Shown here piece after piece: positions 26,643 to 59,779 of a stretch of 64,000 nt of DNA; the first letter of the stretch is position 1; every line of letters starts with the position of its first letter. Both the position numbers and the translations under genes were made by a program. The notes beneath the pieces are model-generated. The model saw only the letters and a list, made by a program, of their open reading frames with translations. It did no database searches and was not told the origin of the DNA. Location of the stretch: contig JAUYKS010000022.1 in NCBI GenBank assembly GCA_030699935.1, forward strand, positions 18,970 through 82,969, given 5' to 3'. This stretch comes from a bacterium (lineage in GTDB: Bacteria > Patescibacteriota > SICC01).

Positions 26643-28094
26643 TCACTCGCTCAGGACGGCGGTCGGGGTCTTCGGTACCGCGCTTTTCGTAGTGACCCGG
26701 ATTTGCTTGAGCGGCAGACGGAACCCGAACGTGCTTCCCTTGCCTAGCTCGCTTCGCACGATCACCGATCCCTGGTGCTCGTCGATGACCCGCTTGGCGA
26801 CGTACAGTCCCAATCCGGTACCGGACGACAGGACGTCCCGCGCGTTGTCGGCTCGGAAGAACTTGGTGAACATCTTCTTCTGGTCGGCATCGGCGATACC
26901 GATGCCGCGGTCTACGACCTCGAGCATGGCATCCCTATCCTCTTCGCGGACGCTGACCCGGATAGTGCCTCGCTTGCTGTACTTGATCGCGTTGTCGACG
27001 AAGTTCACGACAGCTTGCCTGACCCGCAGCGCGTCGATGTTCAATATGCCGAGCGGCCGCTCCGGCATCTGAAGTTCGATTCGAAGTCCCTTCTTCCGGG
27101 CCAACGACTCGAACTCGCCGACCACGTCCCGCGCGATGTCCTCGAGCCGCGCCACCCCCTTGGTCAGCTCGAACCGTTCCGCGTTGATTCGCGAGACCGA
27201 AAGCATGTCGTTCAGGATGTTGATGACTTCGTTGGTACTTTCCGCGATCTGCTCGACGATCGGCTGCTGCCGCTTCGGCAAGATGCCGAAGTCCTTGTCG
27301 AGCAACATCGCCAGGTAGCCCCGCACCGCGGTAAGCGGACCGCGCAGCTGGTGGGACGCGATCGAGACGAACTCATCTTTGCTGCGATCGGCTTTTCGAA
27401 GGTTCTGATTGGCTTCGCTGAGACGCCGGTTGGTCAAGTCGAGTTCGTCCAGCAGTCCGGCGTTGACCATCGCGACGGCCAGGCCGTCCGTGAGCGCCTG
27501 GAGCGTGTCGCGCTCCGTGTCCGAAAGTTCGTCGTACGGTTTCCGAAGGTAGTACGTCACCACGCCATGGACCTGTTCGTTGGCGATCACGGGATATGCC
27601 ACCAGTCCGGCGATGCCGAGCCGCTTCTGCAGGCGCTTCGCTTCGGCGGCGGCAATCGAGTCCTCGAATTCCTCCAGCGCCCCGCCGGACAGCACCTGTC
27701 GCTGGTTCAACGCTTGGACGATCCGGGGCATTCCCCGGTCCGTCTTCAGGCTCTCCGGCGAAGTGTCCGCCAGGTGGCCCAGGCCCTTGCCGCCGCGGCG
27801 CAGCGCTTCCGAAACCGCCAGCACCGCCAACGACCCGTCCGGCTTGGCTTGGCGGACCGTCCCACCGAGGACCATCTTCTGGTCGGGAATCACGTCGGCG
27901 ATTTCCTGGGCGATGTACCCGAGGGAGAGGTTGGCCAACAGCATCCGGTTAAGCTGCCGGCTGCGGGAAAGGTCGCGATACCTCGCCTCGCAGCGGACGG
28001 ACGCCCGGCGCCTCACCAGGCGGATGCGCATCGACTGGGCCGCCAGCATCACCAGCGACACGGCCAGCAGCGAACTGAGCACGATAACTAACAT
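26643..28094 (-). CDS. Sensor histidine kinase (TM + GAF-like + HisKA + HATPase)
   Basis: 483 aa. The H-box reads FVSIASHQLRGPLTAVRGYLAML. The N-box region reads NFVDNAIKYS. The G-boxes read DRGIGI and GTGLGLYVAK. Confidence 0.85.
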   Translation of the reverse strand: MLVIVLSSLLAVSLVMLAAQSMRIRLVRRRASVRCEARYRDLSRSRQLNRMLLANLSLGYIAQEIADVIPDQKMVLGGTVRQAKPDGSLAVLAVSEALRRGGKGLGHLADTSPESLKTDRGMPRIVQALNQRQVLSGGALEEFEDSIAAAEAKRLQKRLGIAGLVAYPVIANEQVHGVVTYYLRKPYDELSDTERDTLQALTDGLAVAMVNAGLLDELDLTNRRLSEANQNLRKADRSKDEFVSIASHQLRGPLTAVRGYLAMLLDKDFGILPKRQQPIVEQIAESTNEVINILNDMLSVSRINAERFELTKGVARLEDIARDVVGEFESLARKKGLRIELQMPERPLGILNIDALRVRQAVVNFVDNAIKYSKRGTIRVSVREEDRDAMLEVVDRGIGIADADQKKMFTKFFRADNARDVLSSGTGLGLYVAKRVIDEHQGSVIVRSELGKGSTFGFRLPLKQIRVTTKSAVPKTPTAVLSE

Positions 28095-28165
28095 GAAAAT
28101 TGGTTAACCATAGCACTTTTTGCCCGGTTTGTCAACCCGCAGGAAGGCATGGGACAATGTGCCTG

Positions 28166-55826: not shown

Positions 55827-56292
55827 CCTGTCCCCGCCGCCAGAGGATCGTGACCAGGATTCCCGCCCCGGTGATGATCGCCAGGTCGGCCACGTTGAAG
55901 TGGGCCGTCGGGCCGATTGCCACGATATCGAGTACGCCGTCGTACTGGATGCGGTCGAGCGTGTTGGACGCGGCGCCGGCCAGCAGCAGCCAGAACCCGG
56001 CCCGGACCTCGGGACGGAAGCTCCGCGTCAGCCAGTAGCCCAGGCACGCGGAGATCGTGACGCCGGCGATCAACAGGATGCCGTTGTCGATCGGCAGGCC
56101 CAGCACGCCCTCGCGGTTGTAGACGGCGCCGATCCGGAGCGGTCCCGCGGTCAGGATCGTGCCGCCGTTCACGACGAGCCACTTCGTCAGCTGGTCGACC
56201 AGGACGATGCCAAGGGCGACCACGCCGAATCCGCGCGGCGGGTTCAAACGCGGCGGACTGAAGCGGAACGTACTGAAACGCGACAGGTTCAC
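55819..56292 (-). CDS. lspA: Lipoprotein signal peptidase II
   Basis: The sequence reads LTKWLVVN...YNREGVLGLPIDNG...ASNTLDRIQYDGVLDIVA...FNVADLAI. The start is approximated at the GTG (VNLSRF) just after the lgt stop. The listed ORF (to 56415) overlaps lgt. Confidence 0.85.
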   Translation of the reverse strand: MNLSRFSTFRFSPPRLNPPRGFGVVALGIVLVDQLTKWLVVNGGTILTAGPLRIGAVYNREGVLGLPIDNGILLIAGVTISACLGYWLTRSFRPEVRAGFWLLLAGAASNTLDRIQYDGVLDIVAIGPTAHFNVADLAIITGAGILVTILWRRGQDD

Positions 56293-57098
56293 TTCGCCAG
56301 CCCCACCCGGTATCGGCGGACCAGTACGTACAAGCTGATTCCCATCAATATCAGGCCGGTGGCCACGGCGGCCCGGATCCCTCCCACGAAGAGCGCTTCC
56401 TCGGACTGATGCCACGCCTCCAGGGTTACCTGCACGATCCCGAGCAGGAAGACGGTCACCCAGAAGACCAATCCCGGCTTGGCTTTACCGGCGGCGCCGA
56501 GTTTCCAAAGCCGGTAACCGTAGACGGCGATCGCGGCGTAGAGCACGGCGGCGTAGAGTGCCAGCGGATGGACGCGCACGCCCTCCACCAACGACGCCAA
56601 CTGATCCGCGTAACCGATCGACCAAGGCAATGACGTCTGCGTGCCGAGGAAGTCGCCGTTGAGAAGGCTGCCGATCCGGCCGGCCGCCAGTCCGGCCAAC
56701 GCGGCGATCGCGGCGATGTCCAGCCAACGCCAAGTGGAGCCGGTCCGATCGCCCGTGCCCTGGACGCCCCGTTGCCAGCGGATCACCGCCAGCAGTCCGG
56801 CCAATCCCCCGGCGACCCCGCCGGCCAACGCCAGCCGCCCGCCGCCGATCGCGAACCAGTTCCAGAACGAACCGGCGTCTTCCGGCCGGAGCGCCAGGTA
56901 CCACAGCCGCGCCCCGAGCAATCCGCCGAAGGCGGTCGCCAGCAAGTAGTCACTGATCCGCCGGCTCGGCAATCCGGCCTGCTTGGCCAGAAGGTACGCT
57001 ACCGCCGCCGCGACCCCGAATCCGAACACCACGAAGACACCGTAACTGTAGACGGTCAGGGGTCCGAGCTCGAAGAGGATCGGCTGCATGCCCTTCAT
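56289..57098 (-). CDS. lgt: Prolipoprotein diacylglyceryl transferase
   Basis: 269 aa, polytopic. The sequence reads ILFELGPLTVYSYGVFVVFGF...GGLLGARLWY and carries the Lgt signature in the GG...G region. Confidence 0.9.
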   Translation of the reverse strand: MKGMQPILFELGPLTVYSYGVFVVFGFGVAAAVAYLLAKQAGLPSRRISDYLLATAFGGLLGARLWYLALRPEDAGSFWNWFAIGGGRLALAGGVAGGLAGLLAVIRWQRGVQGTGDRTGSTWRWLDIAAIAALAGLAAGRIGSLLNGDFLGTQTSLPWSIGYADQLASLVEGVRVHPLALYAAVLYAAIAVYGYRLWKLGAAGKAKPGLVFWVTVFLLGIVQVTLEAWHQSEEALFVGGIRAAVATGLILMGISLYVLVRRYRVGLAK

Positions 57099-58110
57099 TG
57101 TATGGTCGGCCCGCGTGAAAATGAAAAAGGCGCCGAACTAAGGCCACCCGTAATGAATTAACTTGGTGCTTGCCGGCGCCGATTTCCTAAAAAAGGTTTG
57201 GGGCTCCCCGAGCGATCCGGGAGCCCCGGCCCGTGCCATCTTGGGATGTGCCGGGCAGCAGGCTTGGCGCCACCGGTCTGAGTCTGACCTAGTCGAGCAT
57301 TTGTTTTGATTTTTTCTCGCAGGGAGACTCAGAACGGTGAAGCTAAGGGTTGCTGCCCGGCACGGGTAGGGACAAACGTGAATGGTCTTGAAACGTTGTG
57401 TTTCGGTTTTGGGAGGGTTGAGGGCGCACCGTGATGCGGCCTCTTTGGTTTTTGTTTGTCCGTTCGTCCGCTGTGGGTGGGTGGGATCGGCACCCGCTCG
57501 AACAGCAGGGCGGCGAGCACCTTCTGGCTAGCGATATGCGGTCATGAAGGTGTTGTTTCTTTTTGATTTTCCTTCGCAGAGGACGCTGCGTCTTAAGGGA
57601 AAGTGCTCGACTCCCCGCCGTTCGGCTGCGGTTCCGGCTTGGAACCGTGCGTGGCATGGGCCTTATTTTGAATGTGCTTGGGGGACTAAAAACCCCGATG
57701 TCGCGGGCCTTTTGCGGCCACCGCTCAATCGGGATTAAGTCAACGTAGCACCGTGAACAAGACTTGTCAACACTTATGCATAATATTTGTTCAATCAGGC
57801 ACGGTAAGGCATGGGCCAGGCACAAATAAACATGATTTAGGCAAAAACAGTTACGAAGAAAGCAGCGGATTTGGGTTTGAAACCCGCTGCTTGTGTGTCG
57901 GTCCATACCTTTGAATCCATACCCTTGGATCATCTTCTGTAAAGCCTCGTCAAATGCCTGACGGCACCTCCCCTGACGAGACCTCGGACGGATGGCGGGG
58001 AGCCGGATGCGGCGCATCCGGAGATAGATGGATCACCTCCTCAGTCGTCGACGCCGATCAGGACGGCAGGCGCAGGCAAATTACATCACCACCTTTCGAC
58101 AACTTGGAGG
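57099..58110. other. About 1.0 kb of non-coding, highly structured sequence upstream of lgt. It is a candidate for one or more structured ncRNAs or leader elements.
   Basis: No credible ORF is present; the listed 57343..58017(-) ORF is Arg/Cys/Ser-rich garbage. Several hairpins are perfect: GGGGCTCCC-N10-GGGAGCCCC at 57200-57227; a 13-bp long-range pairing of GTGCCGGGCAGCA at 57248-57260 with TGCTGCCCGGCAC at 57351-57363; CGGTTCCGGCTTGGAACCG; and GGGGGACTAAAAACCCC. A tandem-duplicated T-rich motif TTTTGATTTTyCyTCGCAGrGGA sits at about 57303 and 57561. Confidence 0.5.
57868..57896 (-). terminator. Intrinsic terminator-like hairpin
   Basis: The minus strand reads GCAGCGG-GTTTCAAACCCAAAT-CCGCTGC followed by TTTCTTCGTAACTGTTTTTGCC. 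Confidence 0.5.
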
Positions 58111-58533
58111 TTAGCGGACCATCGCCACGCGCGGCGCGAGACGAGGCGGGCGCAAGGCGCTTCGCCGGGACCGCTTCCGCGTGCGCGCGGGTCTTTCCGA
58201 GAGGGCCGTAACGGGCTCGTCGGTCGGAACTACATAGGGCGGATGGAGTAACGTCTTCTCCCTCAGTCCCTCTTGTTGCAACTCCTCGCACATCTGGCAT
58301 TCGCCGCGCAGGTGCCGGTGGTGATCCTCATCCATGATCTCGTACGAGGGCATGGAGGGCGGATCGCCATGGTTGATCAGCTTGTGCTGCTCGATCGGCA
58401 TCCGCACTTTCCGGCACGGACGGTTCCGGAAGGCCCTGGTGATCTCCTGATCCATTCCGGATCGCGGAAACTTATACCAAGGCTCCGGAAATACCTCGTG
58501 ATGAACGTTGGTACCATCTCTGTCGCGAGCCAA
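58111..58533 (-). CDS. Hypothetical His/Cys-containing protein
   Basis: 140 aa. GC3 is about 75%, which supports coding. The sequence includes NHGDPP...DEDHHRHLRGECQMCEE. It may be metal-binding or HNH-like, but the family is not resolved. Confidence 0.4.
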   Translation of the reverse strand: MARDRDGTNVHHEVFPEPWYKFPRSGMDQEITRAFRNRPCRKVRMPIEQHKLINHGDPPSMPSYEIMDEDHHRHLRGECQMCEELQQEGLREKTLLHPPYVVPTDEPVTALSERPARTRKRSRRSALRPPRLAPRVAMVR

Positions 58534-58585
58534 CAGATACGTCCCTTCGTCGTCGGTTTGCAGGTATGGATTGTGTTTTTGAGGT

Positions 58586-58609
58586 ACGAAAAAACCGCCC
58601 TAGAGCGGT
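58586..58609 (-). terminator. Intrinsic terminator after rmuC
   Basis: The minus strand reads ACCGCTCTAGGGCGGT followed by TTTTTTCGT. Confidence 0.6.
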
Positions 58610-58696
58610 CGCGAAAGAAGCCCTTGTCCTTCGCTTTTGTTTTGACGGCCTGAATGAACCATCGCTCTTAATTGTACGGCCTGCGCGAGGCACCCG

Positions 58697-59779
58697 CTAG
58701 GACTTCTTGGATGGGGATGGGGATTGGGATGAGGATGGGGACGGCGTCTCGGTCACCGGCTCCTCCGGCAGCTCTGTGAACTGCTCCAGCTTCTCCGCGA
58801 CCTTCGCTTGCGTGCCGGTCAGGGCGCCCGCCTTCTCGATCTTCCCTTTCATGTGGTCGTAATCTTTCTCCACCGACGGCACCGTCTTCTGCGCGTTGCC
58901 GAGGTGCTTGAACAGCAGCTCCAAACTCCCTCCAAGCTTTCCGGAATCCTGCTGGATCGCGCGAAGCTCGTTGAGCACTTCTTTCGCCCGCACCTCGATC
59001 TGCTCTCCTTCGAAGCTCTTCAGGACCAGCTGAAGGAACAGGTAGAAGTTGTTCGGCGAGACCAGGATCACGTGCTTGTCCGCCGCGAAGTCGAACAGGT
59101 TGGTGTCGTTGTAAATCTCCTGGAAGACCGCCTCGCCCGGCACGTACATGAAGGCGTAGTCGACCGTGTCCTCGCCCGGCAGGATGTACTTCTTGGCGAT
59201 GTCGGTGACGTGCTTCTTCACCTGCTGATGGAAGTCGCGGAGCAGCGCGGTCCGCTCGGTTTCGCCCTTCACCTTCTGCGCCGCCAGCCACTTCTCCAGC
59301 GGGAACTTCGAATCGATCGGGATCATGCCGCTCGAGGTCAGCACGACCGCGTCCACCTTCTCACCGCTCTTGAACGTATGTTGCAGCTTGAACTTGGCCT
59401 TCGGCAGGCATTCGGAAAGGATGTCCTTCATCAGCGACTCACCGATGTTGCCGCGGAGCTTCGGTGAACGGAAGACCTCGCGCATCTCTTCGATCGATTG
59501 GCCCATCTTCTGGATCCGCCCGACTTCCTTGTTGAGCTCGGCGATCACCCCGGCCGCCTTGTCGAGGCGCTGCCCGATCTCCTTGCTGGTCTCCTGCGAG
59601 CTCCGGCTGGCATGACGTTGGTCTTCCTTGAAGTCCTTTAGCCACTGCATCAGGGCCGAGTCGTCGTCGCCGGCCTGCTCGGCCAGCTCCCGCGCCTTCC
59701 GCTGCTTGAGCAGCTCGTAGTAGACGGCGGCGATCATCACGATCAGCACGACGGCGGCGATTACCAAGATAGTAGTCAT
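58697..59779 (-). CDS. rmuC: DNA recombination protein RmuC
   Basis: 360 aa. It has an N-terminal TM and coiled coil. The C-terminal RmuC nuclease-like domain reads VDYAFMYVPGEAVFQEI...VILVSPNNFYLFLQLV. Confidence 0.85.
   Translation of the reverse strand: MTTILVIAAVVLIVMIAAVYYELLKQRKARELAEQAGDDDSALMQWLKDFKEDQRHASRSSQETSKEIGQRLDKAAGVIAELNKEVGRIQKMGQSIEEMREVFRSPKLRGNIGESLMKDILSECLPKAKFKLQHTFKSGEKVDAVVLTSSGMIPIDSKFPLEKWLAAQKVKGETERTALLRDFHQQVKKHVTDIAKKYILPGEDTVDYAFMYVPGEAVFQEIYNDTNLFDFAADKHVILVSPNNFYLFLQLVLKSFEGEQIEVRAKEVLNELRAIQQDSGKLGGSLELLFKHLGNAQKTVPSVEKDYDHMKGKIEKAGALTGTQAKVAEKLEQFTELPEEPVTETPSPSSSQSPSPSKKS

Follow-up and report, generated by a model that had tools for sequence, protein, structure and literature searches.

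To our knowledge, only a handful of bacterial noncoding RNAs (ncRNAs) combine a length above 500 nt with a complex conserved fold (the rRNAs, the smaller RNase P RNA, group II introns, OLE, GOLLD, ROOL, and few others), and each that we know of has repaid study with new biochemistry or architecture. The ornate, large, extremophilic (OLE) RNA, which we take to be Rfam family RF01071, is ~600 nt long and has its host range in the Firmicutes. OLE functions together with OapA, a membrane protein (PMC12286853). Most ROOL and GOLLD genes belong to phages or prophages and lie near tRNA islands, and the folds and assemblies of these RNAs rest on kissing loops and A-minor contacts (PMC12286853). We analyzed a 64,000-nt stretch of DNA, hereafter the window (GenBank assembly GCA_030699935.1, contig JAUYKS010000022.1, positions 18,970 to 82,969 of the forward strand), from a high-GC member of the Patescibacteria (candidate phyla radiation) whose closest Lgt homologs belong to "Patescibacteria group bacterium" assemblies. 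A gap free of genes precedes lgt (56289–57098, minus strand; Pfam LGT match) and contains a conserved element that is, with high confidence, a structured RNA gene on the minus strand. The description that suits it best is that of a new large structured RNA family, limited as far as sampled to one Saccharimonadia clade. The fuller statement, that 57120–57770 on the minus strand forms a stand-alone gene whose product is a large structured ncRNA of ~615 nt acting in trans, is the one we favor, with some reserve. The original prediction for this region, made from the letters of the window, had at its core a novel structured ncRNA. That core is borne out by conservation in 12 loci, compensatory changes, promoter and terminator signals belonging to the element, and the lack of an Rfam match.

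Homologs were collected by retrieving relatives of Lgt from a protein database and fetching their contigs, together with exact-sequence look-ups. The 12 homologous loci (cited by L numbers where needed) represent ~9–10 distinct lineages of one clade, and the element was recovered only from Saccharimonadia/Patescibacteria metagenome assemblies. It occurs once per locus and in 12/12 is the immediate upstream neighbor of lgt, with the same orientation, even where Lgt identity is only 39%–45%. Across relatives, ~680 nt of the gap (57119–57793) align with 69%–85% identity (BLASTN), and a profile hidden Markov model (nhmmer) finds the element in the three most distant loci, in which Lgt is 39%–45% identical, with E values of 1e-32 to 1e-73. 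When the same genome pairs are compared, identity to the window copy is 76%–88% for the RNA element versus 62%–75% for lgt DNA. Of the nine closer sequences, five have an identical 50-nt block (57476–57525) and the other four differ from it at one base, and a 23-mer of the most conserved block identified six species representatives in a genome collection, all from this group. Sequence conservation starts at the predicted start site and ends at the U-tract. The L003 element is 98% identical to the window copy. In L005 (1–84), the surviving 85 nt of the RNA, from the 3' strand of arm B to P8, are 98.8% identical to the window copy, and the Lgt of that contig is only 70% identical. The gap had been read as a single 1-kb unit (57099–58110). 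The part at 57120–57770 is conserved and includes four of the five stems described for that unit; the remainder (57771–58110), which holds the fifth stem, is common only to a near-identical strain and is conserved nowhere beyond it (BLASTN).

Other searches delimit the distribution. Lgt peptide patterns found no relative in the genome collection, and an invariant 20-mer identified 12 loci in a metagenome collection, all chance matches in unrelated high-GC DNA. There was no match to the element in viral contigs (IMG/VR) or in phage and plasmid records. A distant Lgt locus, L037 (31% identity), has the gene order ileS-lspA-lgt with no gap and no element.

The two signals expected of a stand-alone ncRNA gene, a promoter and an intrinsic terminator of its own, are predicted on the minus strand in 12/12 loci (Table 1). 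The −35 and −10 boxes are separated by a constant 17-nt spacer (TTGACA-N14-TGnTAnnnT) in all of them, while the sequences of the spacer and of the upstream flank vary. The distance from the promoter to the conserved 5' sequence ACUUAAUCCCGA, which begins immediately after the −10 box, is fixed. Matches to the full promoter pattern in the 64-kb window number two, versus 0.15 expected. A simple sigma-70 scan missed the RNA promoter because its −10 hexamer matches TATAAT at only three of six positions. The other perfect TTGACA-N14-TGnTAnnnT (28107–28135, minus strand) precedes a gene for a GAF-domain histidine kinase (26643–28094) by 13 nt, a position that again leaves almost no leader. At the opposite end of the element, a GC-rich hairpin followed by UUUUU (window 57185–57120) is found in 12/12 loci. 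The distance from this terminator to the lgt ATG is 16–51 nt, the exception being L008, which has an insertion of ~230 nt there (L008 4765–5000); L009 and L010 carry the same insertion. The strand, which the original prediction left open, is assigned as minus on three grounds: the promoter, the terminator, and unpaired segments that are rich in A, as is typical of structured RNAs.

The predicted RNA is built around a long-range helix, P2, which closes a multi-arm junction and is kept in 12/12 sequences (Table 1). The 5' domain appears in the minimum free energy (MFE) folds of the window copy and of relatives. Its inner stem covaries (GGCC/GGCC to GGUC/GACC in L006), and UAAUCCCGA within it is nearly invariant. 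The P5 stem is paired in 12/12 sequences and its loop is identical in 11 (CUGAUCC in L033). In the P8 loop, CGGAUC is invariant and is preceded by U in L034 and by C in the other 11. The terminator domain has an inner CACC/GGUG stem and two nearly invariant internal loops, GGCAAG and CCUUAG. Conserved A-rich single-stranded stretches are AAACAAAAAC, AAUCAAAACAAA, and GAAAAUCAAAAAGAAAC. The P3 hairpin occurs in the window copy, L003, and L006 but is missing from L008 and the L012 group, which marks its position as an expansion site, and most relatives have an extra hairpin between P8 and the terminator and others at further expansion sites. All five hairpin stems named in the original prediction were located in the sequence, either exactly or within a few bases (Table 1). 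Measured against dinucleotide shuffles, 57120–57736 is far more stably folded than chance on the minus strand (MFE z-score of −8.4).

Table 1. Coordinates of the predicted RNA, its promoter, and its structural elements; RNA position n equals window coordinate 57737 − n.
Feature	Window coordinates	RNA positions	Strand	Sequence and remarks
−35 box	57765..57770		−	TTGACA; identical in 12/12 loci
Extended −10 box	57742..57750		−	TGcTACGTT (pattern TGnTAnnnT); pattern kept in 12/12 loci
Predicted transcript, ~615 nt	57120..57736		−	predicted start ~57736 ± 4; predicted 3' end 57120–57125
5' domain	57691..57736	1–46	−	AAUCCCGAU pairs with AUCGGGGUU around hairpin GCGG(U)GGCC-GCAAAA-GGCCCGC
Competing small hairpin	57680–57696		−	GGGG-N8-CCCC; alternative near 5' domain
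P2, 5' strand	57652..57662	75–85	−	GGCCCAUGCCA; pairs with 57228–57238
P3, variable hairpin	57629..57647	90–108	−	GGUUCC-AAGCC-GGAACC
Arm A	57497..57626	111–240	−	~130-nt hairpin; A-rich tip (GAAGGAAAAUCAAAAAGAAACAACACCUUC)
P5 hairpin	57479..57495	242–258	−	GGGUG-CCGAUCC-CACCC; within 50-nt block 57476–57525
Central A/C-rich domain	57368..57472	265–369	−	helix GGACGAAC/GUUUGUCC; two small hairpins; conserved CAAACAAAAACCAAAGA
Arm B	57248..57363	374–489	−	116-nt hairpin; conserved A-rich tip AAUCAAAACAAA
P2, 3' strand	57228..57238	499–509	−	UGGCACGGGCC; abuts P8; conserved CCAAGA just upstream
P8 hairpin	57199..57227	510–538	−	GGGGCUCCC-GGAUCGCUCG-GGGAGCCCC; abuts P2; loop CCGGAUC
Terminator domain	57120..57185	552–617	−	GGAAAUC-GGCGCCGGC...GCC..CGGCGCC-UUUUUCAUU; U-tract in 12/12 loci
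Five stems of the original prediction	57199–57227; 57248–57260 with 57351–57363; 57629–57647; 57680–57696; 57860–57892			

Lineage-specific extra hairpins (L012 4522–4674, L034 5473–5696, and the 5' domains of L006 and L011) were found in the central domain, the 5' linker, and the interval between P8 and the terminator. Of all versions of the RNA, that of the window is the most compact.

All detectable copies were aligned with covariance models built for three domains, so that the alignments are fitted to the model structure. In MAFFT alignments, the register of the distant sequences was wrong in P2, P8, and the central domain, and covariance-model alignments and per-sequence folds were used instead. 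Arm A with P5 (12 sequences, 41 pairs, 95.9% of cells paired) has 15 double-sided changes versus 4.6 ± 1.7 in shuffles, arm B (10 sequences, 38 pairs, 97.4% of cells paired) has nine versus 3.3 ± 1.0, and P5 with the central domain (12 sequences, 24 pairs, 98.1% of cells paired) has nine versus 4.0 ± 1.1. For each domain, the observed count was reached in none of 500 shuffles, and sliding the partners by 1–3 columns gave counts of 0–3. Over the three domains, a compensatory change is found in 33 of 103 pairs, versus ~12 in shuffles. Since these numbers come from few, related, and model-fitted sequences, they are supportive and not formal proof. Alignment-independent evidence comes from mini-constructs of P2 and P8, which form the same two helices in 12/12 sequences despite differing sequence. 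Variants of the distal half of P2 include UGCC/GGCA, UACC/GGUA, UAUCU/AGGUA, UACU/AGUA, and CUUUC/GAAAG. The P8 stem has double changes at six of 10 positions over the 12 sequences (for example, GCUCC/GGAGC to ACUUCC/GGAAGU), and a G-C pair is replaced by A-U in both L011 and L016. Arm B is replaced in L034 and L036 by a ~100-nt hairpin of unrelated sequence in the same place. Base pairs of the element are maintained by compensatory substitutions beyond what relatedness provides, as in a structured RNA, and the covariation check in related loci that had been proposed for this region found compensatory changes above shuffles in three domains.

The element is not protein-coding, as the original prediction had held. 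Between the window and L006, substitutions at the three codon positions number 23/29/22 in the element, a flat distribution, versus 56/43/99 in lgt, with its excess at third positions. Indels in the element are many and mostly 1–2 nt long, and those in lgt are nearly all multiples of three. Open frames jump phase even between near-identical strains, and the long open reading frames (ORFs) of the region have no Pfam match. We therefore rejected both a protein-coding gene and a degraded pseudogene, there being no conserved frame, no third-position excess, and no indel pattern in multiples of three. A 224-aa ORF called in two public assemblies (window 57343–58017, minus strand; L001 4082–4756; L002 2839–3513) is spurious, and this annotation is hereby corrected. 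It is Arg/Cys-rich, belongs to no family, overlaps about two-thirds of the RNA (57343–57736), and was not called in L003. A 116-aa ORF that one assembly calls in L008 (4208–4558) also overlaps the RNA and is probably spurious.

No known family accounts for the element. Rfam 15 comprises 4,227 covariance models, including RNase P, tmRNA, signal recognition particle (SRP), 6S, OLE, ROOL, GOLLD, HEARO, raiA, T-box, riboswitches, group I/II introns, and rRNA. At gathering thresholds, it detected only five tRNAs in the whole window, all elsewhere. A permissive scan (E ≤ 10) of 56900–58700 returned one spurious snoRNA match, located outside the element, and the same scan of six homologous loci returned scattered, weak, and inconsistent sub-threshold matches within it. 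ARAGORN found no tRNA or tmRNA gene in 56000–59000. The scan proposed earlier for this region therefore matched no family in either mode, and the earlier remark that the region could not be matched to RNase P RNA, tmRNA, or SRP RNA agrees with both programs. Literature searches found no such RNA described for Saccharibacteria or Patescibacteria. T-box, tRNA-like, and SRP-like resemblances noticed by eye (GGGUGG, GCACCA, UCCGGA) were dropped, as no model matched. We also rejected a mobile-element guide RNA (omega-, bridge-, or HEARO-type), given one copy per locus, a constant syntenic site, and no adjacent transposase, recombinase, or nuclease gene.

In the explanation we propose, the RNA would be strongly and independently transcribed from its own promoter and released at its own terminator. 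It would act in trans as a folded RNA, most likely as a self-assembling RNA or as the core of a ribonucleoprotein, comparable to OLE, ROOL, or GOLLD; a metabolite-sensing leader role appears improbable. The P5 loop (GAUCC) and the P8 loop (GGAUC) share a palindromic GAUC core and might form an intra- or intermolecular kissing contact, which we put forward as a hypothesis only, judging from the loop sequences. The A-rich arm tips could make A-minor contacts or bind protein. Oligomerization of this RNA is pure conjecture. A pairing of the P8 loop with the start of lgt (CCGAUCC, codons 3–5) was considered and rejected, as the lgt nucleotides are not conserved there in the L012/L014 group. Patescibacteria have genomes of ~1 Mb with very little noncoding DNA, yet this 0.6-kb RNA gene is better conserved than the adjacent genes of an essential pathway, which argues for an important function. 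More speculatively, and as a possibility that we hold to be doubtful, the RNA could be the founding member of a Saccharimonadia-specific class of ornate large RNAs. Such RNAs would be abundant, 615–700 nt long, and equipped with GAUC loops and A-rich tips that give a compact or multimeric architecture or a dedicated ribonucleoprotein. They would serve an essential role in episymbionts with reduced genomes, possibly tied to envelope or lipoprotein biogenesis; the last suggestion stems from the fixed place before lgt-lspA.

Several observations weigh against a stand-alone gene acting in trans, and they are considered here with the explanations that compete with it. The loci are few (12, from ~9–10 lineages of one clade), and pairs were counted in alignments that had been fitted to the model. 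What is said of the transcript, its two ends, and its strand is predicted from sequence. Both loops of the putative kissing contact are invariant, so there is no covariation with which to probe it, and no partner protein gene is consistently adjacent among the loci, the variable ORFs nearby being mutually unrelated. The invariable position just upstream of lgt is equally expected of a cis-acting leader. The element would then be a giant 5' untranslated region of an lgt-lspA-rluD operon transcribed from the same promoter, its fold sensing a ligand, a protein, or a physical signal and setting termination versus read-through. This is the foremost competitor, unlikely in our judgment but with definite points in its favor. 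The element keeps its place and orientation relative to lgt in every locus while what lies on its far side differs, being unrelated ORFs or nothing at all, the terminator is close to the lgt ATG in most loci, and in L006 the U-tract of the terminator runs right up to the putative lgt −10 box, with no obvious −35 box and no room for one between them. However, 600 nt with a closed multi-arm junction far exceed known riboswitches and leaders, no aptamer or leader family matches, and no conserved antiterminator pairing to the terminator arms was seen by eye in the alignments. A conserved [T/G]ACAAT box 7–8 nt before the conserved lgt ATG in all relatives, together with the absence of a Shine-Dalgarno sequence, suggests that lgt has its own promoter and an independent leaderless mRNA, and the L008 locus tolerates its insertion between terminator and lgt. 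Adjacency is also weak evidence of coupling because the synteny of the whole neighborhood is conserved. The start of lgt itself is probably the second ATG (57089, MQPILF) and not 57098 (window 57087–57102, minus strand).

Of the three options originally offered (tandem riboswitch aptamers, tandem small RNAs, or one large structured RNA), only the last is favored. A single promoter and terminator serve the whole, the long-range helix P2 encloses both arms and ties the domains together, there is no Rfam aptamer match, and the cross-match between the arms is below background. Two tandem aptamers or small RNAs, each around one copy of a T-rich/A-rich motif, have very little probability. They draw some support from the two long arms, whose A-rich tips share CUGCGA-GAAAA-UCAAAA in this genome, and from an arm-A model that weakly matches arm B in eight loci (~25 bits, E ~1e-3). 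That score, however, is lower than those of the model's reverse-strand matches (28–38 bits), and an arm-B model does not match arm A. The tandem duplication originally claimed for the motif is not supported. Its 19-nt copies match at 16 of 19 positions, as do those in 5.5% of dinucleotide shuffles, and the likeness between copies is highest in this genome and fades in relatives. What is conserved about the copies is that each sits in the A-rich tip of one of the two long arms (A and B), and an ancient duplication of these arms is not demonstrated. A functional plus-strand RNA, running antisense to the neighboring genes, is similarly improbable. The plus strand folds at least as well as the minus strand (MFE z-scores of −10.0 and −8.4, respectively, for 57120–57736 against dinucleotide shuffles), which is a further point against our reading, and several arm-B positions are kept as G-U pairs on the plus strand only. 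Helices predicted on both strands have a balanced six G-U cells versus seven A-C cells, which does not decide the strand, and the 78 G-U versus eight A-C cells of the model-fitted alignments are biased by how the structure was derived; pair types were accordingly set aside as a strand criterion, since they gave no decision once this bias was removed. Against the plus strand are the absence of a conserved promoter or U-tract terminator in that orientation, the A-richness of unpaired regions on the minus strand, and a better consensus fold energy on the minus strand (−189 versus −180 to −182 kcal/mol, depending on the alignment), with single sequences favoring the G/U-rich plus strand. Least probable of all is a relic or DNA-level feature (replication origin, protein-binding region, decayed gene, or mobile-element remnant), which would fit a long gene-free stretch with GC below that of its surroundings. 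It would not fit conservation above that of neighboring coding DNA, helices kept by compensatory changes, a single copy per locus, or the lack of a phage, plasmid, or viral-contig match and of a consistent reading frame. A chromosomal replication origin was specifically rejected, with no DnaA box (≤1 mismatch) within 6 kb and with minus-strand genes on both sides of the element, so that gene orientation does not switch.

The neighborhood is syntenic in every relative and consists of an AddA/UvrD-like helicase, a HAD gene (in most), RmuC, a variable segment, the gap, lgt, lspA, rluD, and cmk/gmk. The ORF-free gap before lgt is 750–1,500 nt long in every relative. In the window, the gap is preceded upstream by a small ORF (58111–58533, minus strand) and then by rmuC (58697–59779, minus strand). 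The slot between RmuC and the RNA contains unrelated ORFs in different genomes and is empty in L012. Its cargo in L006, L008, L014, L033, and L036 includes a methyltransferase, several orphan ORFs of 136–229 aa, and a helix-turn-helix protein, making the slot a local hotspot of gene turnover beside a very stable RNA-lgt junction. The small ORF of the window is probably real at its full 140 aa, although gene callers took a 96-aa version. A homolog with 30% identity is found beside the RNA in L036 (3995–4405; E = 1e-14), and the product is His/Cys-rich (NxHH..FPE...AFRNxPC...H.H) and belongs to no Pfam family. The hairpin at 57860–57892, followed by a minus-strand U-run, is lineage-specific and likely the terminator of this small ORF. 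Beside it is a 14-nt tandem repeat (57902–57929; TCCATACCTTTGAA / TCCATACCCTTGGA); neither the hairpin nor the repeat is conserved further than the closest strain. A patch of 28–67 nt just 3' of the rmuC stop (window ~58575–58648) is conserved at the DNA level in the distant L014, L033, and L036 and includes a terminator-like hairpin (58593–58610, minus strand).

The element offers a concrete and well-bounded target, with a sequence, a strand, predicted ends, and a secondary-structure model supported by covariation. When compared to described systems, it resembles riboswitches, tandem riboswitches, and attenuating leaders in its position upstream of a gene, in the same orientation, with an intrinsic terminator near the start codon. 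Unlike them, it is several times larger, matches no known aptamer, and showed by eye no conserved terminator/antiterminator alternative, and lgt, downstream, seems to start leaderless from a −10 box of its own. With CrcZ/CrcY-type sponge RNAs and 6S RNA, it shares an abundant-looking, stand-alone predicted transcript and several conserved A-rich single-stranded stretches, but it is much longer and far more structured, its A-rich motifs are not regular repeats, and there is no Rfam match to 6S or CrcZ. By size and character, OLE, ROOL, and GOLLD appear to be the nearest analogs, although none of their testable defining features (model match, phage context) is found here. Like ROOL and GOLLD, the RNA is large (>500 nt), ornate, and of unknown function, and its invariant complementary and palindromic loops (GAUCC, GGAUC) and A-rich tips could serve contacts of the kind those RNAs use. 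It differs from them in having no Rfam match, in its fixed chromosomal site, and in its absence from phage and viral collections. The differences from OLE are the lack of a match to its Rfam model, a different host phylum, the lack of a conserved partner gene beside this RNA, and the predicted promoter and terminator of its own. The likenesses to OLE are a similar size, invariant nucleotides interleaved with covarying helices, and a chromosomal, single-copy gene limited to one bacterial lineage. The neighbors of this RNA, lgt and lspA, encode membrane enzymes, and the partner of OLE, OapA, is likewise a membrane protein.

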